From UHGV virus genome UHGV-0192279: a stretch of 50,405 nucleotides of DNA; one strand, written 5' to 3'. Source of the stretch: a virus. Shown here piece by piece: positions 26,980 to 45,302 of the stretch (position 1 is the first letter of the stretch; each line of letters starts with the position of its first letter). The notes beneath the pieces were generated by a model that ran no database searches, was not told the origin of the DNA, and worked only from the letters and a program-made list of their open reading frames with translations. The position numbers and the translations under genes are program-made.

Positions 26980-27591
26980 ATGCGAGCGCAAGGCATGAGC
27001 CAGGATTCACTCGCGGATCTCATGGGGATAACTAAAGGCGGCCTGTCACACTGGCTTAACGGTCGCCGCGAGCCAAATCTTGAAGATATTGCGCGGATTA
27101 TGCGGGCACTTGGTCGTCGGCAGTTCACTGTTACCCATGATGGAATGGTCATTGATGATTCTGTTTCTAACACGTTACCGGGAGCGCCGCAGCGTGATTT
27201 AGGCAGTTACCCGGTTGTTGACTGGAAGGACACAGTAAACAATATGGAAGATACAAGGCGATCAACATTACCACACGTTACGACTAGCGTTATTTGTTCA
27301 GATGATAGTTACTGGCTGGTTGCTAAAGGTGAATCAATGAACGCGCCGCAGGGGTTGAGCATCCCTGCCGGGACGATGATACTTGTTGACCCACACGCGC
27401 CAGCTATCGATGGAAAGCTGGTTATAGCACAGCTTGAGGAAGGGCAAATACCGACGTTTAAACAGTTGATTATTGATGGAGGTCAAAGGCTTTTACGTTC
27501 GCTTAACCCGCTGTATCCACCAATCCCCATGAATCCTGAATCGAAAATCATAGGCGTGGTGGTGGACGCGAAGATCGTAAACCTGCCATAA
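26980..27591 (+). CDS. CI-like repressor (HTH_XRE + S24 LexA-like peptidase), 203 aa
   Basis: N-terminal HTH (SQDSLADLMGITKGGLSHWLNGRREP) and C-terminal S24 domain with Ser (GESM) and Lys (TFKQL) dyad. Confidence 0.85.
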   Translation: MRAQGMSQDSLADLMGITKGGLSHWLNGRREPNLEDIARIMRALGRRQFTVTHDGMVIDDSVSNTLPGAPQRDLGSYPVVDWKDTVNNMEDTRRSTLPHVTTSVICSDDSYWLVAKGESMNAPQGLSIPAGTMILVDPHAPAIDGKLVIAQLEEGQIPTFKQLIIDGGQRLLRSLNPLYPPIPMNPESKIIGVVVDAKIVNLP

Positions 27592-27879: not shown

Positions 27880-28170
27880 ATGACCGTAACAATTATGTAT
27901 GGCAAATGTGATAGCAAAATAAATGCCAGGGAACGCAGAAGAATAAAAAGAGAAAACGAAAGAAAATCATCACCTGCAATCAATAAAACTGACAATGTTG
28001 ATAAAGCTATTCGTTTTGCAAACGTAGAAAGATGCAAACCGAATGGCATTAAAGAGCATCGCAAAGGTGCGGCAAAATGGTATGCGGAAAACGAAAGCGG
28101 CAATTACTACCACGCAACACAACCGCGTAGTCTAGGGGAAAAACCCCTGGATAAAGTACGCTACAGATAA
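27880..28170 (+). CDS. N-like transcription antiterminator (96 aa)
   Basis: N-terminus MTVTIMYGK...NARERRRIKRENERK resembles P22 gp24/lambda N arginine-rich motif; AAGGAG SD; preceded by nut site. Confidence 0.65.
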   Translation: MTVTIMYGKCDSKINARERRRIKRENERKSSPAINKTDNVDKAIRFANVERCKPNGIKEHRKGAAKWYAENESGNYYHATQPRSLGEKPLDKVRYR

Positions 28171-29395: not shown

Positions 29396-29674
29396 ATGGG
29401 TGATTATTTAAAAGCGCCACCGCCACCACGAACAAAAGAGCAAGTATTAAAAGAAGCCCGTGATCAAATCGATCATGAGCTTTTTTTATGCGGCACGGCA
29501 GCGGATCGGATGGCAAAAAGATTTAGTGACCTGTACGCAAAGCAAATATGGTTCGACAACTGGCAGGCAAGTTTTTACCCACTACAGAAAACTGATGATA
29601 TGCATTGGCCTGAATATGTCGATCCACGTATGCGCAAATATCGCGGGCGTATGGGCCAGGTTATTAACGATTAA
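29396..29674 (+). CDS. hypothetical protein (92 aa)
   Basis: ORF in early operon. Confidence 0.4.
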   Translation: MGDYLKAPPPPRTKEQVLKEARDQIDHELFLCGTAADRMAKRFSDLYAKQIWFDNWQASFYPLQKTDDMHWPEYVDPRMRKYRGRMGQVIND

Positions 29675-29687
29675 TGAGGAGTTAATC

Positions 29688-29939
29688 ATGACAGCTACAA
29701 CATTAAGCGAAAATAACTGTAGAGGTTTTCAGAGAACTGCGGAAAGCCTTGATGATAGTGATGTATTTGTTGATTTCGGCGGCGGCAACTATGAATTCGA
29801 AACGTCTGCGGGCTGGAGTGATAAATGGCCTTTCCCTACTCGACAGGAATTAAGCGATCGTAAATCATTTGGCGAAGATGCCGAACGCCTGGCGAATAAT
29901 AAATGGCTGGATAAATTTATTGCGGAGGCTGAAAAATGA
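29688..29939 (+). CDS. hypothetical protein (83 aa)
   Basis: ATG at 29688 with GAGGAG SD (track ORF 29460 extends upstream in same frame across previous gene). Confidence 0.4.
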   Translation: MTATTLSENNCRGFQRTAESLDDSDVFVDFGGGNYEFETSAGWSDKWPFPTRQELSDRKSFGEDAERLANNKWLDKFIAEAEK

Positions 29940-30055
29940 ACATAATCAAAATAGCAGCGTTATCCGCAGGGGTTGCAATAGCGGTTGCTTATCTTGCCGC
30001 TTCGCTTTATATCACGATAGCGATCATAAAACTGATTACTAATATGTGGGGTTAA
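29936..30055 (+). CDS. 39-aa single-TM peptide (MNIIKIAALSAGVAIAVAYLAASLYITIAIIKLITNMWG)
   Basis: Below track cutoff; GGAGG SD; ATGA overlap with upstream stop; hydrophobic core. Confidence 0.4.
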   Translation: MNIIKIAALSAGVAIAVAYLAASLYITIAIIKLITNMWG

Positions 30056-30057
30056 TC

Positions 30058-30177
30058 ATGAAAGTCGGTAAGGATATTGTGACGGTCGCGTTTTGCGTTA
30101 TTTGTTTCCTGTTTACGATTGCATTTTGCGGAGCACTTGCTGCGGTATTGGCTTTTATTGGTAAGGGGTTGATGTGA
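30058..30177 (+). CDS. 39-aa single-TM peptide (MKVGKDIVTVAFCVICFLFTIAFCGALAAVLAFIGKGLM)
   Basis: Below track cutoff; GGGG SD; stop overlaps next start. Confidence 0.4.
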   Translation: MKVGKDIVTVAFCVICFLFTIAFCGALAAVLAFIGKGLM

Positions 30178-30449
30178 TGGTTACTTGGAATGTAAAAGAG
30201 GGCGATCTTGTTGTTTTGCCTGAATATCGTAGTGACCCTGGTCTGGTTGTGCTGAACAAGACATATAACGATCTTGAGCGCCCAATCCTGGTTAAATATC
30301 TGGACGGAACAATTATAGAGCCGCGTTTCTTCGACAAGATTGAACTGAAGGCCCGCAATGTTCGCGTTAAGCCGTTCCGGGCTTATGTTGAAAACCACTG
30401 GCGTAAATTGTTCGCCGGACTGGATGGGATGTTCGGCGTATGGCTATAA
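30177..30449 (+). CDS. hypothetical protein (90 aa)
   Basis: ATG at 30177 overlapping upstream stop (TGATG). Confidence 0.45.
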   Translation: MVTWNVKEGDLVVLPEYRSDPGLVVLNKTYNDLERPILVKYLDGTIIEPRFFDKIELKARNVRVKPFRAYVENHWRKLFAGLDGMFGVWL

Positions 30450-30631
30450 AATTAGTGAAGGTTAAACACCTGAAAGGCGGTGAAAGATTAATGTCATGGT
30501 GGGGACATGAATTTATTGCTACTGCCTTTCATTTCGGCCCGGGTGGTCAAGTAACAATATTTGATGAAGATTACGACGAGGTGGGGCAATGGCATCTTGA
30601 GCAATATGTCGAGGTGTTAAATGAAAATTAA
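30440..30631 (+). CDS. hypothetical protein (63 aa)
   Basis: ORF with overlapping start; weak SD. Confidence 0.3.
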   Translation: MAIKLVKVKHLKGGERLMSWWGHEFIATAFHFGPGGQVTIFDEDYDEVGQWHLEQYVEVLNEN

Positions 30632-30953
30632 ATTCCACAAAGCGTATGACGCTAACACAAACAAGCTATCACTATTTATCGAATTCGAACGCCGGATCGT
30701 GGTAGCGCCCTGGTCGCGCCGCTTCAATGACGCTGGCGGGCGGCGAAAATTCGCGGTTGATATGCTGTTACGCGGCTGCGGCCTTATGCGACCGCTATCT
30801 GACTTAAAACGAATGATGCCGGGATCGTTCGGTCAGATTGATGAAATAGAAATAAGCCCGGAAGAACTGAAACGGGAGCGTGATTTATTCCTTTCAAGCG
30901 AAGAAAACCCGTTTAATTCAGAAACTGAAATGAAATGGCATCATCCACTATAA
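30621..30953 (+). CDS. hypothetical protein (110 aa)
   Basis: GAGGTG SD; ATG 30621. Confidence 0.4.
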   Translation: MKIKFHKAYDANTNKLSLFIEFERRIVVAPWSRRFNDAGGRRKFAVDMLLRGCGLMRPLSDLKRMMPGSFGQIDEIEISPEELKRERDLFLSSEENPFNSETEMKWHHPL

Positions 30954-30964
30954 GGGTAAATATT

Positions 30965-31585
30965 ATGAACAATATCAAAACGGCTTATTCACTCGGCAGC
31001 GAAGGCATGTTAATTACTCGCTACACAGAAGACGCGAGCTTTCACGAAGTGGTAACTAAGGATTATCACGAAGTATTAAAAGATATGAACGCTGGCGCGT
31101 ATGACGGTGATTTAAACCTGGCGCTACAGGTTGTTGACATTGTGATGGATGCGTCAATCCGCGATTACGTGTCTCTAAATATGGAAGAAAAAACATCGGT
31201 AGCGCGTTATGTGTTCTGCCTCACTTTCGTAAGACGCATGGAGGAGGAATTCGGACGTGTACCAGTGCCGGAAGAACTGGACCCGCTTGCGTATGGTAGT
31301 GCGATAATGGTCCCGCTGGGCGACGGGGTGATGGGTAGTGCTTCATTGCATACAATCCGTGAACTGATGCGAGATAGCCTTGAAGCTGAAGTGCTTAAGA
31401 AAGCGGTAGAAGAAGGGCGCGACGCGGAAGAAGTGAAAAAATTCATGCCTGTTATTTATGGTGATATGGTCGGCGATAATATGCGGGCTAATGATTTTGG
31501 CGTCCAGTGTGTTCTGGCGACGCTGAATGATGCCAGAAAACGTGCACAGCCAATGCCGAAACAGGAAAAACGTGTACTACATTAA
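30965..31585 (+). CDS. hypothetical protein (206 aa)
   Basis: ATG 30965 with AAGGG SD (track start 30935 overlaps upstream gene). Confidence 0.45.
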   Translation: MNNIKTAYSLGSEGMLITRYTEDASFHEVVTKDYHEVLKDMNAGAYDGDLNLALQVVDIVMDASIRDYVSLNMEEKTSVARYVFCLTFVRRMEEEFGRVPVPEELDPLAYGSAIMVPLGDGVMGSASLHTIRELMRDSLEAEVLKKAVEEGRDAEEVKKFMPVIYGDMVGDNMRANDFGVQCVLATLNDARKRAQPMPKQEKRVLH

Positions 31586-31589
31586 CAGG

Positions 31590-31621
31590 GTGATCGCGAT
31601 CACATAAATATACATTTTGTG
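31590..31621. promoter_or_regulatory. perfect 14-bp palindrome GTGATCGCGATCAC followed by ATACATTTTGTG motif
   Basis: Intergenic gap inside early operon; palindrome arms GTGAT/ATCAC recur at 34002-34015. Confidence 0.4.
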
Positions 31622-31683
31622 CTGTGATCGCATATCCGTTTTGTAAGAAGAAATCGAAAGGTTTACGGCGCGGAGAAAACAAG

Positions 31684-31902
31684 ATGGAGCGCGAATTGAT
31701 GCTCTACTGTGTAGAAGGTGGTGTAGGTCACGATGCCTACGTCGCCGGGAAAAGCTATCCAGCCGATGAAGTGCTTTTTAATATGCACTTGAGAGAAAAC
31801 GAATACCAGATATCCGTGTGGAAGCGGTGCGTTGATGGTGTTGAAGTTGCTAGCCTTGAAAGATATTTAGGTAAATTCGACTACGGATTAATGGAGGCTT
31901 GA
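31684..31902 (+). CDS. hypothetical protein (72 aa)
   Basis: ATG 31684 (track ORF begins at upstream GTG 31624). Confidence 0.35.
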   Translation: MERELMLYCVEGGVGHDAYVAGKSYPADEVLFNMHLRENEYQISVWKRCVDGVEVASLERYLGKFDYGLMEA

Positions 31903-31904
31903 TT

Positions 31905-31973
31905 ATGGACGACGCATTGTTATTCATGTGCATTTGCTGGAGATTTGTTGCTTTCTGTTTATTTGTTAGATGA
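31905..31973 (+). CDS. 22-aa hydrophobic micro-ORF (MDDALLFMCICWRFVAFCLFVR)
   Basis: GGAGG SD 7 nt upstream; below track cutoff. Confidence 0.3.
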   Translation: MDDALLFMCICWRFVAFCLFVR

Positions 31974-32001
31974 TTTATTGAATACCATATGAGGTGATTT
32001 T

Positions 32002-32139
32002 ATGAAATGCGTTGGAGACTATAGGCTACCGGATAACGCTAAATTAGCTGGGTCGGTTATGCTGGCTGTTATTACTATAACGCGGTCGGTGATATTTACA
32101 GAGTTAACATTATTGATGGTGTACAGCATTTTCGTTTAA
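32002..32139 (+). CDS. 45-aa single-TM peptide (MKCVGDYRLPDNAKLAGSVMLAVITITRSVIFTELTLLMVYSIFV)
   Basis: GAGGTGA SD 6 nt upstream; below track cutoff. Confidence 0.35.
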   Translation: MKCVGDYRLPDNAKLAGSVMLAVITITRSVIFTELTLLMVYSIFV

Positions 32140-32181
32140 TGCCTTATAGATTGAGCGCGCTTAAACAGGCGGTATTAATGC

Positions 32182-32385
32182 ATGAAGTTTAAACATTACA
32201 GGGAATGGAAAATTCCAGAAGCAGCAACAAAGGCAGCGCCAGGTGATTTTTCTGGCGTTTATTTTTATATGGATGGCGAATGGTATTTCGGCAGCAGGCC
32301 GGATCACTATTACCATGAAGTATGCAAGCCCCACGTATGGGATATTAAAGAACGCGTGAAAGACGGAGTGATTGAGGACGTTTAA
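32182..32385 (+). CDS. hypothetical protein (67 aa)
   Basis: ORF in early operon. Confidence 0.4.
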   Translation: MKFKHYREWKIPEAATKAAPGDFSGVYFYMDGEWYFGSRPDHYYHEVCKPHVWDIKERVKDGVIEDV

Positions 32386-32387
32386 AA

Positions 32388-32624
32388 ATGTTTAAGAGCT
32401 TTTTAAACTGGTTGGGAGCGTGGCTTTTAGCTACGCTTTTTGTTTTCCTGGCGGCAGCGGCTGTTATCGTCGTTATTATGCTGGGGGCGATTTTTATTAC
32501 GTGGTCGATGCCTGAATTTAACGACATTGGGAATATTCTTTTTGTCGCCCGCGCTTTATTGGCGGTTAGCGCATTTGTCGGGTTTTGCTGGACTGCCGCG
32601 CCAGATTGGGATGATCCGTTTTAG
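32388..32624 (+). CDS. small membrane protein (78 aa, 2 TM helices)
   Basis: Two long hydrophobic segments. Confidence 0.45.
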   Translation: MFKSFLNWLGAWLLATLFVFLAAAAVIVVIMLGAIFITWSMPEFNDIGNILFVARALLAVSAFVGFCWTAAPDWDDPF

Positions 32625-32626
32625 TT

Positions 32627-32860
32627 ATGGCTTTATTCAACCTGTCAGAGCCGCAATTTAATGCCGTTAAAACTGCCGCGCGGGCGGCGCTTTCTGCCTG
32701 CAAGACAGAGGTGGAAAGAAACGGATATAGCGATAAAGCCACGCGGCTGATACTCGACAAGCATTATCGCAAGGTCGCCCCGCTAATCAGCATTGAGCGT
32801 TTTGTGTGGTTGGTGGGGTATCTGAATAACCGCTGGGGGACGGAGCAGGATTATTTCTAA
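32627..32860 (+). CDS. hypothetical protein (77 aa)
   Basis: ORF in early operon. Confidence 0.35.
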   Translation: MALFNLSEPQFNAVKTAARAALSACKTEVERNGYSDKATRLILDKHYRKVAPLISIERFVWLVGYLNNRWGTEQDYF

Positions 32861-32869
32861 GGGGGCGCA

Positions 32870-33217
32870 ATGAAAAATGATTACGGCGGCAGTCATACGC
32901 CGAAAGAAATAAAAGACCTATGGCAGACGCCGAAACCTGTTTTTAGAGGAATGGATCGGGAATTCGAATTCGTCGCGGTTGTTTCCGGTGCGCTTATTTC
33001 TGGCGGCGTTTACCGGGTTCTACCTGGTGATTTCGATTCCAAACGCTGGCCTGCAAATATAGCGTCCGCCATTGGCGATGCGTTAATTTTTCCCACGCTA
33101 TCGTTTATGGCATTTATGCCGGAAATATCAGCTATTCAATTCATCTCAAAAATGGCAGCGGTAACGGTGATCACTATCATCATGCGCCGCTATTTCACGT
33201 TTGAGGGTGGAAAATGA
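32870..33217 (+). CDS. hypothetical membrane-associated protein (115 aa)
   Basis: GGGGG SD; hydrophobic segments. Confidence 0.4.
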   Translation: MKNDYGGSHTPKEIKDLWQTPKPVFRGMDREFEFVAVVSGALISGGVYRVLPGDFDSKRWPANIASAIGDALIFPTLSFMAFMPEISAIQFISKMAAVTVITIIMRRYFTFEGGK

Positions 33218-41002: not shown

Positions 41003-41143
41003 ATGAATGACGAATACGTTAATAATTTTATTGTTATGTTTCTTAGTGAACATTGGCGCATGTTTGAACATTATTGTTTTGAGCGAGGGGAAAACGCTGA
41101 AGAAATTTATCAATATTTAGGCGGGGAGAAAGAAGATGATTGA
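41003..41143 (+). CDS. 46-aa ORF (MNDEYVNNFIVMFLSEHWRMFEHY...)
   Basis: Below track cutoff; fills gap between flanking genes. Confidence 0.25.
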   Translation: MNDEYVNNFIVMFLSEHWRMFEHYCFERGENAEEIYQYLGGEKEDD

Positions 41144-41336
41144 ATGTCTTATCCTTGCGGTGGTTCTCCTTTATATCGCTGGCGCTATCCTGATGTCTTG
41201 TTTCATCAAATCTAACGATCTCGATCGTGGTGGTCTTGAGATTACTTTCTGGCCTGTAGCAGTCTTTTACGCTTTTGTAGACGCTACGCGCATACAGATC
41301 ATGCGAGCTATTAAGGAGCGCAAAAATGGGAAATAG
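41136..41336 (+). CDS. small membrane protein (66 aa)
   Basis: Hydrophobic helices. Confidence 0.4.
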   Translation: MIECLILAVVLLYIAGAILMSCFIKSNDLDRGGLEITFWPVAVFYAFVDATRIQIMRAIKERKNGK

Positions 41337-41801: not shown

Positions 41802-42002
41802 ATGCTCGACAAAATACGGGAGACGTGCGCGTATGCAGTAGGGGCCGTAACGGCCTTTTTCGGTGCGATAACCATCAATGATGTTGCTGTCTTTGTGGGT
41901 ATCTTATCAACCGCAGGTACATTTGCCGTTAACTATTACTTCAAATCACAGGAGAACAAGCGAGCGCAAGAGGAACACGACGCGCGAATGGGGAATAAGT
42001 AA
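41802..42002 (+). CDS. holin, phage-21 S-like pinholin (66 aa)
   Basis: GGAGGT SD; two hydrophobic helices and charged C-terminus resembling S21 (…YFK..E..R). Confidence 0.7.
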   Translation: MLDKIRETCAYAVGAVTAFFGAITINDVAVFVGILSTAGTFAVNYYFKSQENKRAQEEHDARMGNK

Positions 42003-42494
42003 ATGATTAGCCAATCGCTGAAGAACAAGATTATTGCTGCGGCGGCTGGTGGGGCGATCTCTATTGCGGCTGTGATGGTTAAATCATTAGAAGGCGTGGA
42101 GTACGATCCGTATCGTGATGTTATCGGTGTATGGACTGTATGTTATGGTCATACCGGAAAAGACATCATGCTTGGTAAGACTTACACGCAATCAGAATGC
42201 GATGCTTTGTTAAATAAAGATCTCCACAAAACCGCAAAAGCGATCGACCCCTATATTAAAGTCGAAATATCAGATTTTACCCGCGCGGCGCTTTATTCAT
42301 TCGCCTATAACGTAGGCGCTACCAACTTTAAAACATCAACATTATTGAAGCTACTCAATGACGGCAAGAAATCGGAAGCGTGCGCACAGCTTAAACGCTG
42401 GATCTATGCTGGTGGTAAGCAGTGGCAAGGGTTAATTAACCGTCGTGATATTGAATATGCCGTTTGCGAATGGGGTGAAACATGGACAAGGTAA
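42003..42494 (+). CDS. SAR endolysin, lysozyme GH24 family (163 aa)
   Basis: N-terminal signal-anchor-release segment [17 protein letters not shown] followed by E-x8-D-x5-T catalytic motif ([23 protein letters not shown]) as in phage 21 R. Confidence 0.9.
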
Positions 42495-42952
42495 AGGCGT
42501 TAGTTATTGCCGTTGTTGTTTGCATTATTGCCGGACTAACTGCCGTTACATGTTATTACCAGGGTGAGGCGGCAAGGTTACAGGAAGAAGTCACGGTGAC
42601 GCAAGGCGCACTAAAAACAGCAAGTAACACTATTCAGCAGATGAAGGAGCGAAACGCAGAGCTATCAAAACTTGATAAGAGGTATCACGATGAAATTAAA
42701 GCTATCAGATCTGACATTGCCGATCTTCGCGCTGGCATTGATAGCGGCGCTATCAGGTTGCACGTCAACGCCGAGCCAGTGCGATTGCTCGACAATACCG
42801 GAACCGCCAGCCGCATTGATGGAGCCACCTGTAGACTCACTGCCGACGCTGAATCGGCTTATCTATCCCTCAGAGAACAACTAAAAGAGAAAGACGCGAA
42901 GATCACCGGATTGCAGGACTACATCAAAACGCAGTGCTTACGCAAAAAATAA
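42482..42952 (+). CDS. i-spanin (Rz-like), 156 aa
   Basis: N-terminal TM helix then coiled-coil periplasmic domain; overlaps endolysin end. Confidence 0.7.
42690..42884 (+). CDS. o-spanin (Rz1-like lipoprotein) embedded in +1 frame of i-spanin (64 aa)
   Basis: ATG 42690 with AAGAGG SD; lipobox LSGC after signal peptide; Pro-rich mature part. Confidence 0.6.
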   Translation: MKLKLSDLTLPIFALALIAALSGCTSTPSQCDCSTIPEPPAALMEPPVDSLPTLNRLIYPSENN

Positions 42953-43230: not shown

Positions 43231-43773
43231 ATGGCTAAGGCTAAAGGCATTAAGTTGCCTCACTTCAAGATCCCGCTTTTTGAGCATACCACTGTTTTCT
43301 TTTGCCCGACCAGCGAGATGTTCTATGAATTTTGCGAAAAGGCAGGAATTCCGATTGAACCTGATTTCGAGTTGGCTGAAGGATTAACGCTTACTTGCAC
43401 TGGCGAGAATGGTGGTAACTTCTACGTGATCGCAGTATTCAACAATGAGTTGGGAACGCTGGTCCATGAATGCGCCCACACTACATTCCACGTTTTAAGT
43501 GATGTAGGCGTCGTGGCTACCACGGATCCTACCCATCCGGCGAATGAGACTTACGCTTACATGGTAGGCCGTATCTTCGATGCGTTTTCCCCTATCCTGG
43601 CAGAATCAAACGAAGCACAGGTTGCAGCAATGCAGGCGGCAGAAGTCGTCGATCAGGCGCTGGAACAGGCAGAACAGCCGAAGGAAGAAGAAAAGCCAGC
43701 GAAGAAAGGTAAACGTAAGCCGAAATCAAAAGAGGCATATGTGCCGCGCGTAATGAGCTTTAAACGAGGGTGA
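43231..43773 (+). CDS. HExxH-motif protein with Lys-rich C-terminal tail (180 aa)
   Basis: HECAH followed about 25 aa later by ETYAY (possible third zinc ligand); AGGAG SD; C-terminus KEEEKPAKKGKRKPKSKE. Confidence 0.5.
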   Translation: MAKAKGIKLPHFKIPLFEHTTVFFCPTSEMFYEFCEKAGIPIEPDFELAEGLTLTCTGENGGNFYVIAVFNNELGTLVHECAHTTFHVLSDVGVVATTDPTHPANETYAYMVGRIFDAFSPILAESNEAQVAAMQAAEVVDQALEQAEQPKEEEKPAKKGKRKPKSKEAYVPRVMSFKRG

Positions 43774-43775
43774 TT

Positions 43776-43844
43776 ATGTTTACTTTTCTGTTAGGCGTAT
43801 TTGTTGGTATTGCTGCCGCTGTGATCTTGATATACGGGCATTAA
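43776..43844 (+). CDS. micro-ORF 1/12: 22-aa hydrophobic peptide MFTFLLGVFVGIAAAVILIYGH
   Basis: ATG 3 nt after upstream stop; GAGGG SD. Confidence 0.4.
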   Translation: MFTFLLGVFVGIAAAVILIYGH

Positions 43845-43848
43845 TATT

Positions 43849-43944
43849 ATGGATGAGAACATCATCGCCGGACTAATCGGTGTTTCTGTATTTCTGGTGT
43901 GTTTTGTCATTGCCGTGCTGATAACCGTAAAGAGTAAATTATGA
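43849..43944 (+). CDS. micro-ORF 2/12: 31-aa peptide MDENIIAGLIGVSVFLVCFVIAVLITVKSKL
   Basis: ATG 5 nt after previous stop; hydrophobic core, basic C-terminus. Confidence 0.4.
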   Translation: MDENIIAGLIGVSVFLVCFVIAVLITVKSKL

Positions 43945-44015
43945 ACGCCTACGATCTCATCTGGTTATTGGTGCTCATCGTAGGTATTTGCGTGAACATT
44001 TACAGGCTGTGGTGA
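43941..44015 (+). CDS. micro-ORF 3/12: 24-aa peptide MNAYDLIWLLVLIVGICVNIYRLW
   Basis: ATGA overlap with previous stop; AAGAG SD; paralogous N-terminus with micro-ORFs 5 and 7. Confidence 0.45.
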   Translation: MNAYDLIWLLVLIVGICVNIYRLW

Positions 44016-44020
44016 AAAAT

Positions 44021-44095
44021 ATGATTGACCCGGTCGTTATCCTTTCTGCATGCGTCGCTGTATGGCTGGCGGTCATGATATTCATCGAAAGCTAA
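44021..44095 (+). CDS. micro-ORF 4/12: 24-aa peptide MIDPVVILSACVAVWLAVMIFIES
   Basis: ATG 6 nt after previous stop; GGTG SD-like. Confidence 0.35.
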   Translation: MIDPVVILSACVAVWLAVMIFIES

Positions 44096-44105
44096 AGGTA
44101 TCAAC

Positions 44106-44180
44106 ATGAATATTTACGATCTCATCTGGTGCTCATCACTCGCCGTCATTATGTATCTGTGGTTAAAGAATGTTGTATAG
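44106..44180 (+). CDS. micro-ORF 5/12: 24-aa peptide MNIYDLIWCSSLAVIMYLWLKNVV
   Basis: AAAGG SD; shares MN.YDLIW with micro-ORF 3 (DNA-level tacgatctcatctggt repeat). Confidence 0.45.
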   Translation: MNIYDLIWCSSLAVIMYLWLKNVV

Positions 44181-44188
44181 GTGACGGC

Positions 44189-44287
44189 ATGGATATATTC
44201 GAATTACTGGCGATTATGTGCGGCATGATGTTAGGCATTGTCGCCATAATCATCATCATCGGTCTGGTTGTAGGTAGTATCAAATGA
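44189..44287 (+). CDS. micro-ORF 6/12: 32-aa peptide MDIFELLAIMCGMMLGIVAIIIIIGLVVGSIK
   Basis: AGGTGA SD 5 nt upstream. Confidence 0.45.
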   Translation: MDIFELLAIMCGMMLGIVAIIIIIGLVVGSIK

Positions 44288-44364
44288 ACGCCTACGAAAT
44301 GCTATTGCTGGTGGCTGCCGTTGCAGTTATTGCCGTGGACGTATACCGGGAGACTAAAAAATGA
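44284..44364 (+). CDS. micro-ORF 7/12: 26-aa peptide MNAYEMLLLVAAVAVIAVDVYRETKK
   Basis: ATGA overlap; shares atgaacgcctacga with micro-ORF 3. Confidence 0.45.
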   Translation: MNAYEMLLLVAAVAVIAVDVYRETKK

Positions 44365-44429
44365 AATGGCTTGATTTATTTTTCCTGACCGTTGCGATTG
44401 TTCTTACCATGACCGCGTTGACTCAATAG
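44361..44429 (+). CDS. micro-ORF 8/12: 22-aa peptide MKWLDLFFLTVAIVLTMTALTQ
   Basis: ATGA overlap; GGGAGA SD. Confidence 0.45.
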   Translation: MKWLDLFFLTVAIVLTMTALTQ

Positions 44430-44437
44430 GTGAATAT

Positions 44438-44512
44438 ATGGAAACCATCGAGGCTGTATTATTCGTATGTATTGCAGCGGCTGTTATTGTGGGGTTTATT
44501 ATCAATGTCTGA
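44438..44512 (+). CDS. micro-ORF 9/12: 24-aa peptide METIEAVLFVCIAAAVIVGFIINV
   Basis: AGGTGA SD 6 nt upstream. Confidence 0.45.
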   Translation: METIEAVLFVCIAAAVIVGFIINV

Positions 44513-44528
44513 CGGTGATTTCTTAATT

Positions 44529-44573
44529 ATGGCTATATGCACACTGTTAGCCGTTATCGTTTTTTTTGCGTGA
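44529..44573 (+). CDS. micro-ORF 10/12: 14-aa peptide MAICTLLAVIVFFA (may be truncated at T7 homopolymer)
   Basis: Weak SD; ORF ends just after a run of 7 T. Confidence 0.2.
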   Translation: MAICTLLAVIVFFA

Positions 44574-44582
44574 GAAAGCATC

Positions 44583-44726
44583 ATGTCTGAATTCCTCAAT
44601 CTGCTAACGTTCTTGCTTTGCGCTGGTCTGCTTATTGCCGCATTAATGTTATGCGTATACGTGATTGTAATGATTACCGCGCTTATTTACAGAGAAGCAA
44701 AACAGAGATTTAAGGTTAAACAATGA
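44583..44726 (+). CDS. micro-ORF 11/12: 47-aa peptide MSEFLNLLTFLLCAGLLIAALMLCVYVIVMITALIYREAKQRFKVKQ
   Basis: Long hydrophobic span then basic tail; GAGAAAG SD-like. Confidence 0.45.
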   Translation: MSEFLNLLTFLLCAGLLIAALMLCVYVIVMITALIYREAKQRFKVKQ

Positions 44727-44816: not shown

Positions 44817-45302
44817 ATGGCCCGCACTAAAAATGCAAAAGCTGACGACAAAAAGCCAGCCGCTAAAAAGGTGGGCCGTCCGCATGGTTATACCGAAGAA
44901 AAAGCATTAGAAATCTGTGAGCTGGTGGCGGACGGTCAGAGTGTTAACAAAATTTCGAAAATGCCTGGTATGCCTACCCGTTCCACAATCCTGAAATGGT
45001 TTAGAGACGTGCCGGAATTCTCGGACATGTACATGCACGCGAAGGAAATCGGCTTCGAGGTATTAGCTGATGAGATCCTCGATATAGCTGATGATGCTAA
45101 GAACGTTGATAAAGACCAACTACGCCGCCACCAACTAATGATTGAAACGCGTAAATGGTTACTGGCAAAACTGCAACCGCGTAAATATGGCGAACGCGTC
45201 ACACAGGAGATCGTCGGCAACAAGGAAGAAGCACCCGTCCAGGTTGAAGTCACGAAAGAAGAGATCGCCCGCATCGTCCAGGAAGTAGAAGACGAGGTGT
45301 GA
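44817..45302 (+). CDS. terminase small subunit (161 aa)
   Basis: GAGGTG SD; N-terminal HTH-like DNA-binding region (GRPHGYTEEKALEICELVADGQSVNKISK) typical of small terminases; directly upstream of large terminase. Confidence 0.75.
   Translation: MARTKNAKADDKKPAAKKVGRPHGYTEEKALEICELVADGQSVNKISKMPGMPTRSTILKWFRDVPEFSDMYMHAKEIGFEVLADEILDIADDAKNVDKDQLRRHQLMIETRKWLLAKLQPRKYGERVTQEIVGNKEEAPVQVEVTKEEIARIVQEVEDEV

Follow-up and report, generated by a model that had tools for sequence, protein, structure and literature searches.

The locus and its four short reading frames

The window, by which we mean the whole 50,405-nt stretch of DNA analysed here (UHGV virus genome UHGV-0192279), has as its relatives the mEp021/mEpimmI temperate coliphages, including mEp013 and mEp021, with ~82% nucleotide identity. 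This group is described in PMC11893012, where the proteomics covers virions only. Part of the rightward early operon of this mEpimmI-type phage is a stretch with four short ORFs, m1 to m4, which lies downstream of the gene for an N-like antiterminator (27880-28170), the erf/ssb/abc2 recombination genes and the repressor gene. The features of the stretch are:

m1, 29936..30055, + strand: gene for a 39-aa predicted single-pass membrane micro-protein
m2, 30058..30177, + strand: gene for a 39-aa predicted single-pass membrane micro-protein with a conserved G25xxxA29 motif
m3, 31905..31973, + strand: truncated 22-aa copy of a family of 29-32 aa predicted transmembrane (TM) micro-proteins
ancestral m3 C-terminal tail, 31974..31997, + strand: remnant (FIEYHMR + TGA) recognized by alignment and at the junction, also carrying the m4 Shine-Dalgarno sequence (SD) GAGGTGA
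m4, 32002..32192, + strand: frameshifted pseudogene of a conserved 63-64 aa soluble protein (phrog_37004, homolog of mEp021_27)
m4 as first read, 32002..32139, + strand: 45 aa, of which 17 are authentic N-terminal and 28 out-of-frame residues

The original prediction, made from the sequence alone, had listed four micro-ORFs with SDs at 29936-30055, 30058-30177, 31905-31973 and 32002-32139, and all four are indeed present, each with a start codon and an SD in a gap free of other genes, and with stop-start overlaps to flanking genes. The ATG of m1 (29936) follows an SD, GGAGG, at 29924-29928 and overlaps the stop codon of the upstream 83-aa gene (ATGA). The ATG of m2 (30058) comes 2 nt past the TAA of m1; its SD is only GGGG in the window and GAGG in the relatives, and its stop codon and the start codon of the next gene share bases (TGATG). 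For m3, the ATG at 31905 is preceded by GGAGG at 31893-31897, and for m4, the ATG at 32002 by GAGGTGA at 31991-31997.

We considered a role as holin or other membrane protein of the lysis cassette and rejected it, as such genes are expected beside the endolysin and spanin genes and under late control; holin, endolysin and spanin genes occupy 41802-42952, and m1-m4 are located ~10 kb upstream of them in the early operon. Two PGAP labels on other genes were likewise set aside. The 90-aa gene downstream of m2, named "toxin-antitoxin system toxin subunit", had no supporting sequence match in Pfam, NCBIfam or PDB, and the name "cell division protein FtsK" for a 78-aa protein with two TM helices is spurious, since its match to NF007615 has an E-value of 0.35 against a model cut-off of 1566 bits.

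m1, m2 and the m3 family are conserved as coding sequences

An ATG and an open frame are found for m1, m2 and m3 in every relative that covers the respective site; both m1 (always with an ATG start) and m2 are intact in 21 of 21. The m1 product has 37 residues in most relatives, and a TGA>TGG change in the window extends it by two residues, WG. Across the relatives, frame 0 is the only frame without stop codons in all three genes and also has the lowest dN/dS (0.15-0.31). Pooled values are 0.18 for m1, 0.31 for m2 and 0.15 for the m3 family; the other frames of m1 have values of 1.0-2.0, except for the antisense frame that mirrors the coding one (0.26). Pairwise counts on phylogenetically disjoint pairs gave pN/pS values of 0.24 for m1 (P=2e-11), 0.24 for m2 (P=1e-7) and 0.26 for the m3 family (P=1e-4), pointing to purifying selection on all three. 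These statistics come from a shallow tree, because the relatives used span a single phage group.

Membrane-spanning status was assigned purely by hydropathy scales, namely the best mean Kyte-Doolittle score over 19 residues (KD19) and the insertion values of the Hessa scale. By this measure, m1 (KD19 2.38) and m2 (2.67) are clearly TM-like and the m3 family scores 2.25, so that all three families have a segment predicted to span the bilayer. The property persists in divergent variants of m1-m3 (43-52% identity), and the hydrophobic core of m1 and m2 is kept even at 43-44% identity.

Alternatively, the gaps at 29940-30176 and 31903-32001 could be conserved for RNA or regulatory reasons, as terminators, spacers or ribosome-binding sites, with the hydrophobic ORFs as by-products of T-rich sequence. 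In the GenBank record of mEp021, a predicted terminator, TERM_2, falls within the m1 homolog, and m1, m2 and m3 are left unannotated, as is usual with PGAP; chance makes about 6% of all the window's ORFs of 20 aa or more just as hydrophobic, and the 3' end of m3 overlaps the SD of m4. Against this, variation in m1-m3 is enriched at third codon positions, with pN/pS of 0.24-0.26 and P-values down to 2e-11, and only the coding frame is stop-free in all relatives. The amino-acid pattern is moreover preserved through multi-nucleotide synonymous changes, as in the RWxIE tail of m3, which divergent variants keep by way of synonymous AGG and CGC codons. Fold z-scores of −0.2, +0.7 and +2.2 give no sign of excess RNA structure at m1, m2 and m3, and Rfam had no match there at E<=1. 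We therefore regard a non-coding origin as extremely improbable and consider it very likely, jointly with the frameshift anatomy of m4 described below, that m1, m2 and the m3 family are genuine conserved genes for small, predicted membrane-spanning peptides.

Scans of m1-m3 and their neighbours against Pfam, PHROG, NCBIfam and PADLOC yielded nothing significant, and family and database searches found no homology of m1-m3 to any characterised protein. An exhaustive phmmer search with m1 against 1.84 billion representatives returned two matches, both 37-aa orthologues; a tblastn search with m1 against phages returned none, probably owing to the low-complexity filter. For m2, using a 40-aa orthologue as query in place of the 39-aa peptide of the window, we found homologues in 51 database clusters, 37-40 aa long and all from E. 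coli or Caudoviricetes. Among 50,697 phage genomes, only 7 mEpimmI records contained m2 and m3, and when the neighbouring 206-aa protein was compared to one representative genome per species, no relative turned up in other species. Judged by these searches, m1-m3 are lineage-restricted.

The window carries a truncated m3 and a frameshifted m4

In its normal form, m3 encodes 30 aa, with an acidic N-terminus, a 17-residue TM segment and the basic RWxIE tail. All 22 of the more distant relatives have an m3 of 29-32 aa with the C-terminus RW[FV]IE..., and Gly13 is invariant outside the clade with the truncated allele. The window copy has two lesions: G13R (codon 31941-31943) and a premature TGA (W23stop, 31971-31973). 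In the resulting 22-aa peptide, the arginine falls midway along the 17-residue hydrophobic stretch, and the insertion score is unfavourable. The clade L023-L030 (99-100% identical) shares this allele. With a charged residue in the TM core and the tail lost, the m3 copy of the window phage's clade is probably defective.

The fourth ORF had been predicted to encode another hydrophobic micro-protein, and here the comparison with relatives leads to a different conclusion. One A is missing between 32052 and 32053, a base present in all eight aligned sequences except the window. Re-inserting it restores a 63-aa protein identical to that of relative L023 and 98% identical to that of P0073. The intact form matches phrog_37004 in PHROG (E=4e-12), whereas the 45-aa form has no match there. 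As encoded, only residues 1-17 match phrog_37004 and mEp021_27 until the one base is restored; we therefore consider m4 of the window a pseudogene and not a functional member of this family. Past codon 17, its frame is not conserved in any relative. An AlphaFold model of intact m4 (pLDDT 83) has six strands and a helix, in a β-domain plus helix arrangement, and predicts a soluble β-rich protein, with which the KD19 of the intact family (0.53) agrees. The 45-aa form scores 1.76, a marginal value, with R28 and E34 inside the segment. Thus, m4 looks hydrophobic because a 1-nt deletion puts the tail of an ordinary soluble protein out of frame.

Assembly errors most commonly take the form of one missing base, and the remainder of the m4 gene is undamaged; a normal 63-aa product might thus be hidden by faulty sequencing or assembly, or be made by programmed frameshifting. 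The identical deletion is, however, found in four independent samples (SRR6054582, SRR5165990, ERZ653495, ERZ28626470), on eight contigs in all, and the site, GGG|A|TCG, offers neither an A homopolymer run nor a slippery heptamer; the same sub-lineage also has a 1.17-kb deletion nearby. We consider such an artefact or recoding event scarcely credible and take the deletion, shared as it is by independent samples, to be a real and recent pseudogene allele. The database cluster of the 45-aa sequence has a single member, and phages 99.3-99.8% identical to the window keep the gene intact.

With respect to the original prediction of conserved single-TM micro-genes, m1 and m2 are thus confirmed; the m3 family is as well, although the window copy is truncated and carries an arginine in its core, and m4 is not. 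Two of the checks that had been proposed gave the same division. Frame conservation in relatives, whose absence had been named as refuting the prediction, holds for m1 and m2 and for the m3 family and fails for m4 past codon 17; TM prediction by hydropathy supports the same three families, with the window m3 compromised and the 45-aa m4 marginal.

m3 and m4 as a pair

In all 22 relatives m3 directly adjoins m4, even where insertions part the pair from the upstream gene, and its stop codon lies inside the ribosome-binding site of m4. In 17 of the 22, the two genes are in frame and separated by TGA and one codon only. A natural in-frame fusion of 96 aa (P0070/L031), produced by a TGA>TGG allele, occurs on four contigs. 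G13R and W23stop in m3 mark the clade of the window phage, and the base loss in m4 is additional in its sub-lineage. The natural fusion suggests that m3 and m4 work together. It could also stem from a stop-codon change that is neutral or slightly harmful, and be no sign of joint function. Since close relatives with the truncated m3 have an intact m4, m4 may not need m3.

The position of the m3 stop within the m4 SD, the spacing of TGA and one codon in 17 of 22 relatives and the joint decay of both genes in the window lineage would also fit an m3 that acts in cis only, as an upstream ORF translated for the coupled translation of m4, its peptide being irrelevant. The purifying selection on the amino acids of m3, its invariant Gly13 and conserved RWxIE tail, and the hydrophobicity preserved in variants of 45-52% identity all argue for a functional peptide and make a purely cis-acting role highly improbable.

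The in-frame arrangement across UGA and one codon in most relatives means that read-through or fusion could give a membrane-tethered isoform. A broader scenario, which we consider quite unlikely, combines such an isoform, made by low-level UGA read-through or by the TGA>TGG fusion, with m1 and m2 as new micro-protein families targeting host inner-membrane proteins and the window lineage as a natural knockout of m3-m4. The exclusion of superinfecting DNA and the control of a transporter or protease are examples of what such targets might involve.

Possible roles of m1-m3

Adjacent and probably translationally coupled, m1 and m2 would each yield a peptide of ~37-40 aa consisting of essentially one hydrophobic helix. 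Together with intact m3, they may enter the inner membrane soon after infection or induction and act by packing their helices against those of membrane proteins of host or phage, a proposal based on conserved small-xxx-small motifs and on the invariant Gly13 of m3. They would be accessory modulators of host physiology or superinfection and not structural or lysis proteins. Because the positive-inside rule predicts an N-out/C-in orientation, and in view of the natural in-frame fusion and the constant adjacency, m3 probably serves to anchor m4 at the cytoplasmic face or to recruit it there; in the window lineage this module appears dispensable and decaying. We put the overall explanation, anatomy and membrane-modulator mechanism together, at about 75%, a figure that mainly reflects the anatomy; the mechanism for m1-m3, taken from sequence features, is tentative, at somewhat below even odds.

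Instead of being specific modulators, m1, m2 and m3 could be membrane-damaging toxins, either type I toxins like Hok or TisB or growth inhibitors like Kil. Hok, TisB and Ldr are small type I toxins with a single TM segment and short charged ends. Like these and Ibs, m1-m3 have the appropriate size, a single hydrophobic helix and short charged ends, and Ipe, the product of a neighbouring early gene of mEp021, causes cell death upon overexpression, according to a reference as cited in PMC11893012. A type I toxin-antitoxin locus would stand alone, with its own promoter and an antisense or regulatory RNA. In contrast, m1-m3 are embedded in a tightly coupled polycistronic early operon without a promoter of their own (3 weak promoter-like sites versus 7.8 expected, hence no enrichment), neither an antisense RNA nor a toxin-antitoxin RNA of Rfam matches them, and they have no sequence similarity to known toxins. 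A toxin function thus seems unlikely, and we favour the modulator role.

Counterparts and similar systems

The genes mEp013_28, _29, _35 and _36 are direct orthologues at the same operon position, annotated as hypothetical proteins; equivalents occur in mEp010, mEp044, mEp515, mEp554 and MagusPhagus, and there is also mEp021_27. The TPA records DAR54170.1, DAR54171.1 and DAR54177.1 are direct orthologues at the same position as well. For m1, m2 and the 45-aa m4, nr already contains sequences identical to those of the window, titled "hypothetical protein [Caudoviricetes sp.]". Both m1 and m3 are missing from the mEp021 record and from most PGAP annotations. Compared to all named phages, the window is distinguished by its truncated m3 and frameshifted m4.

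AcrZ, MgtS, KdpF and SgrT are small membrane regulators of bacteria, thought to bind larger membrane proteins. They resemble m1-m3 in having at most 50 aa, a single TM helix and purifying selection, yet there is no sequence relationship, and m1-m3 are phage-borne, operon-embedded and translationally coupled. HK97 gp15 and T4 Imm are small inner-membrane phage proteins for superinfection exclusion, expressed early or in lysogens; they are longer than m1-m3, have two TM helices and show no PHROG or Pfam similarity to them. A 2022 survey of small phage genes by Fremin, Bhatt and Kyrpides reportedly contains many short ORFs predicted to be transmembrane or secreted, and m1-m3 belong to the same general class. 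Hydrophobic intergenic micro-proteins catalogued in Enterobacteriaceae (PMC11188072) share with m1-m3 the same features as the small bacterial regulators, likewise with no sequence relationship.

It had further been claimed that the phage encodes an unusually large set of tiny membrane proteins, all missed by a 60-aa cutoff. The latter does not apply to 32388-32624 (78 aa) and 41136-41336 (66 aa). As to the former, the same mechanical screen counted 17 free-standing hydrophobic small ORFs in the window and 3 in lambda, a single and crude comparator. The claim draws mainly on another locus (43770-44726); the early-operon stretch has only 4 of the 17, with m2 counted instead of its filtered entry.

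Implications

The comparative evidence identifies three ORFs of at most 40 codons, skipped by standard pipelines such as PGAP and by the original mEp021 annotation, as real genes encoding proteins. The phage group that carries them is reportedly prevalent in the human gut. These genes are of an ordinary kind for phages and reveal no new kind of system. As a caution, m4 illustrates how a frameshift in the gene of a soluble protein can create an out-of-frame tail that passes for a hydrophobic "micro-protein". That m3 and m4 decay as a pair, and that a natural fusion allele of the two exists, is a testable hint that they may be functionally linked.

Setting in the early operon

Over positions 29400-32700 the window matches seven sequenced coliphages (mEp013, mEp044, mEp010, mEp554, mEp021, mEp515 and MagusPhagus) at 79-83% nucleotide identity, with 91-100% of the length covered, and 35 E. 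coli prophages at 80-92%. These are mEpimmI temperate phages, a Nus-dependent, non-lambdoid group whose rightward early operon is antiterminated by the N-like protein Gp17 (PMC11893012). The relevant features of the window are:

26980-27591, same strand as and upstream of m1-m4, repressor-like gene
27880-28170, same strand as and upstream of m1-m4, N-like gene
29936-30055, plus strand, micro-ORF m1 (39 aa)
30058-30177, plus strand, micro-ORF m2 (39 aa)
31905-31973, plus strand, micro-ORF m3 (22 aa)
32002-32139, plus strand, micro-ORF m4 (45 aa)
41802-42952, far downstream of m1-m4, lysis cassette (holin, endolysin, spanin)

The original prediction placed four hydrophobic micro-ORFs inside the early operon, a fair description because the repressor-like and N-like genes lie upstream on the same strand, with erf-like, ssb and abc2-like genes after them. 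All four ORFs are present as predicted. Read directly from the sequence, the ATG of m1 overlaps the TGA of an upstream 83-aa gene (ATGA), with GGAGG 7 nt upstream; m2 starts 2 nt past the m1 TAA, and its stop overlaps the start of the following 90-aa gene (TGATG). The ATG of m3 lies 2 nt past the TGA of a 72-aa gene and has GGAGG upstream, and GAGGTGA precedes the ATG of m4. If these ORFs were not genes, gaps of 237 nt and 99 nt would interrupt an otherwise tightly packed operon.

The sole sizeable non-coding gap of the stretch, 31586-31683, contains a perfect 14-bp palindrome, GTGATCGCGATCAC, then TGTGATCGCA. Its RNA fold z-score is -2.2 (3/200 shuffles fold as well), and it could be an operator, terminator or processing site.

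Conserved micro-genes m1 and m2 for predicted membrane peptides

We compared 22 more distant relatives (7 phage records, 4 PGAP-annotated prophages and 11 IMG/VR contigs). Every relative locus covering the site has an ATG-initiated ORF in the same place, of 35-39 codons for m1 and 38-40 for m2, and plus-strand frame 0 is the sole one of six that is stop-free across all sequences. Pooled pairwise dN/dS in this frame was 0.18 for m1 and 0.31 for m2; other frames gave 0.75-2.0, except the antisense frame echoing it. When only phylogenetically disjoint nearest-neighbour pairs were counted, the nonsynonymous share of differences was 41-44%, against a neutral expectation of 74-77%, corresponding to a pN/pS of 0.24 for both m1 (binomial P=2e-11) and m2 (P=1e-7).

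The window peptides are hydrophobic (best mean Kyte-Doolittle score over 19 residues, KD19, 2.38 and 2.67), and even the most divergent variants, m1 of contig L017 (44% identity) and m2 of MagusPhagus (43%), retain values of 2.3-2.8. A G25xxxA29 motif is present in all m2 variants, and the C-terminal half of m1 (SLYITVAIIKLI) is almost invariant. We found neither excess RNA fold stability at m1 and m2 (z = -0.18 and +0.71) nor an Rfam match. Frame conservation and purifying selection in the compared sequences thus confirm m1 and m2 as genuine, conserved micro-genes for predicted membrane-spanning (TM) peptides.

At 30046-30055, the TGA within ATGTGAGG that usually ends m1 is TGG in the window, adding two residues (WG) to m1 and changing the m2 Shine-Dalgarno sequence from GAGG to a weaker GGGG. 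A 119-aa antisense ORF (30039-30398, minus strand) overlaps m2 and the 90-aa gene; its frame, the antisense one usually open opposite real genes, has stops in relatives, and as a gene it is most likely spurious.

Judged by database searches, both peptides are lineage-restricted. The 51 clusters of m2 are all of 37-40 aa and all from E. coli or Caudoviricetes, m1 has just two representatives, of 37 aa, among 1.84 billion proteins, and neither matched a family in Pfam, PHROG, NCBIfam or PADLOC. The micro-ORF class is well known, with orthologues already deposited as hypothetical proteins. Both are annotated in PHANOTATE-based records and missing from the mEp021 record and from most PGAP annotations; nr contains entries identical to the window sequences (DAR54170.1 and DAR54171.1).

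A damaged m3 and a frameshifted m4

The proposed membrane peptide m3 belongs to a real family, of which the window holds a damaged copy. All 22 relatives encode a 29-32 aa peptide, either MD[DE]xL[LF][FY]MC[ICV]CWGFIALCLF[IV]RWFIE[YC]HMR or a divergent form, MDAE..FMACC[CW]GIV.VGLFLRWVIEKYL, with a pooled dN/dS of 0.15 and a disjoint-pair pN/pS of 0.26 (P=1e-4). As the 3' end of m3 overlaps the m4 ribosome-binding site, m3 might be purely cis-acting; this is unlikely because the peptide is under selection. The two forms use different codons, AGG and CGC, for the conserved arginine preceding the RWxIE tail, which likewise argues for peptide-level selection and not merely for a ribosome-binding site. 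Unlike all 22 relatives, the window has AGA (Arg) for the invariant Gly13, at the centre of the 17-residue hydrophobic stretch, and TGA for Trp23, losing the conserved tail. With these changes the estimated insertion score turns from favourable to unfavourable, and the window m3 is probably non-functional. Eight contigs 99.3-100% identical to the window share the allele, whose 22-aa sequence has no protein entry in the public collection.

The 45-aa frame of m4, by comparison, is not conserved. In each of the 22 relatives the corresponding protein is 63-64 aa long; its first 17 residues agree with m4, the remainder with the window's next reading frame. In alignment, the window lacks one base that all seven phages have (GCTGGG-TCGGT vs GC.GG.AT.GGT). 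Putting back one A after 32052 yields MKCVGDYRLPDNAKLAGIGYAGCYYYNAVGDIYRVNIIDGVQHFRLMPYRLSALKQAVLMHEV, ending at 32192, exactly the intact gene of contigs L023, L026 and L028 (99.3-99.8% identical to the window). The deletion is common to four contigs (L024, L025, L027, L029; 99.8-100% identical) from four other samples, and the 45-aa product, a one-member cluster, is recorded on 8 contigs; we therefore take it as a real and very recent allele rather than an error of assembly. No slippery site points to programmed frameshifting, and there is no start codon for a separate C-terminal product, the first in-frame ATG leaving only 16 residues. With a KD19 of 0.53 the intact protein is not hydrophobic; it is predicted to form six β-strands and a C-terminal helix (pLDDT 83) and matches phrog_37004 (E=4e-12). 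The 45-aa form has no PHROG match. On this comparison, m4 as read is a frameshift artefact and not a micro-protein.

The two genes may work together. m3 lies directly upstream of m4 in 22/22 relatives, including those where insertions part the pair from the 72-aa gene, and in 17/22 they share a frame, with a TGA plus one codon between them. In four contigs they are naturally fused in frame by TGA>TGG (96 aa; P0070, L031 2501-2791). The acidic N-terminus and basic C-terminus of m3 predict an N-out/C-in topology, in which an m4 fused or bound to it would be cytoplasmic, and both genes are damaged in the window lineage. Against this link, close relatives that already have the truncated m3 retain an intact m4, and the fusion may have arisen by accident and been tolerated.

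Comparison with the 99.7%-identical L023 (3688-5217) shows that the sub-lineage with the m4 frameshift also has a deletion of ~1.17 kb, lying between short direct repeats (TTCGTCGCGG), which created a chimeric 115-aa ORF (32870-33217). The deletion took with it most of a Dam methyltransferase (PF05869) as well as a DUF6378 gene, and it left only the second half of a 167-aa multi-TM protein.

Other small hydrophobic ORFs

A mechanical screen (ORFs of 20-80 aa, KD19 >= 1.9, not embedded in a longer ORF) yielded 17 hits in the window against 3 in lambda. For the "unusually large set" originally described, this supports no more than a count above that of lambda, a single comparator and not a baseline. 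Nine of the 17 form one run, a separate finding, and the early stretch contributes only m1, m2, m3 and a 78-aa ORF. Further loci are:

32388-32624, 78-aa two-TM protein, just upstream of an Ipe homolog (32627-32860)
41007-41120, 37-aa hydrophobic ORF without a PHROG match, directly upstream of the next
41136-41336, 66-aa TM protein (phrog_10061); the pair lies a few hundred bases ahead of the holin gene
43770-44726, plus strand, about nine closely packed hydrophobic micro-ORFs (24-52 aa, KD19 2.0-3.1)

The run, presumably the "main array" of the original prediction, has a 180-aa ORF (43231-43773) on one side and the gene for the small terminase subunit (44817-45302) on the other, and some members look paralogous (MNAYDLIW... 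and MNAYEMLL...). In several prophages the PGAP name of the 78-aa protein is "cell division protein FtsK", a spurious label whose sole support is a match (E=0.35) to the N-terminal membrane region of FtsK. In mEp021, overexpressed Ipe reportedly kills the cell, according to a reference cited in PMC11893012.

Possible function

The peptides m1, m2 and m3 could be non-specific toxins, but they have neither their own promoter nor an antisense RNA, and we consider this rather unlikely. Helix-helix association with larger membrane proteins is how the characterised small membrane proteins of bacteria work. The same mode has been proposed for many hydrophobic intergenic micro-proteins of Enterobacteriaceae (PMC11188072). 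The likeliest reading, still tentative at a probability of roughly 35-40%, is that m1, m2 and intact m3 would be early-expressed inner-membrane micro-proteins that, like those characterised proteins, may associate helix to helix with larger membrane proteins.
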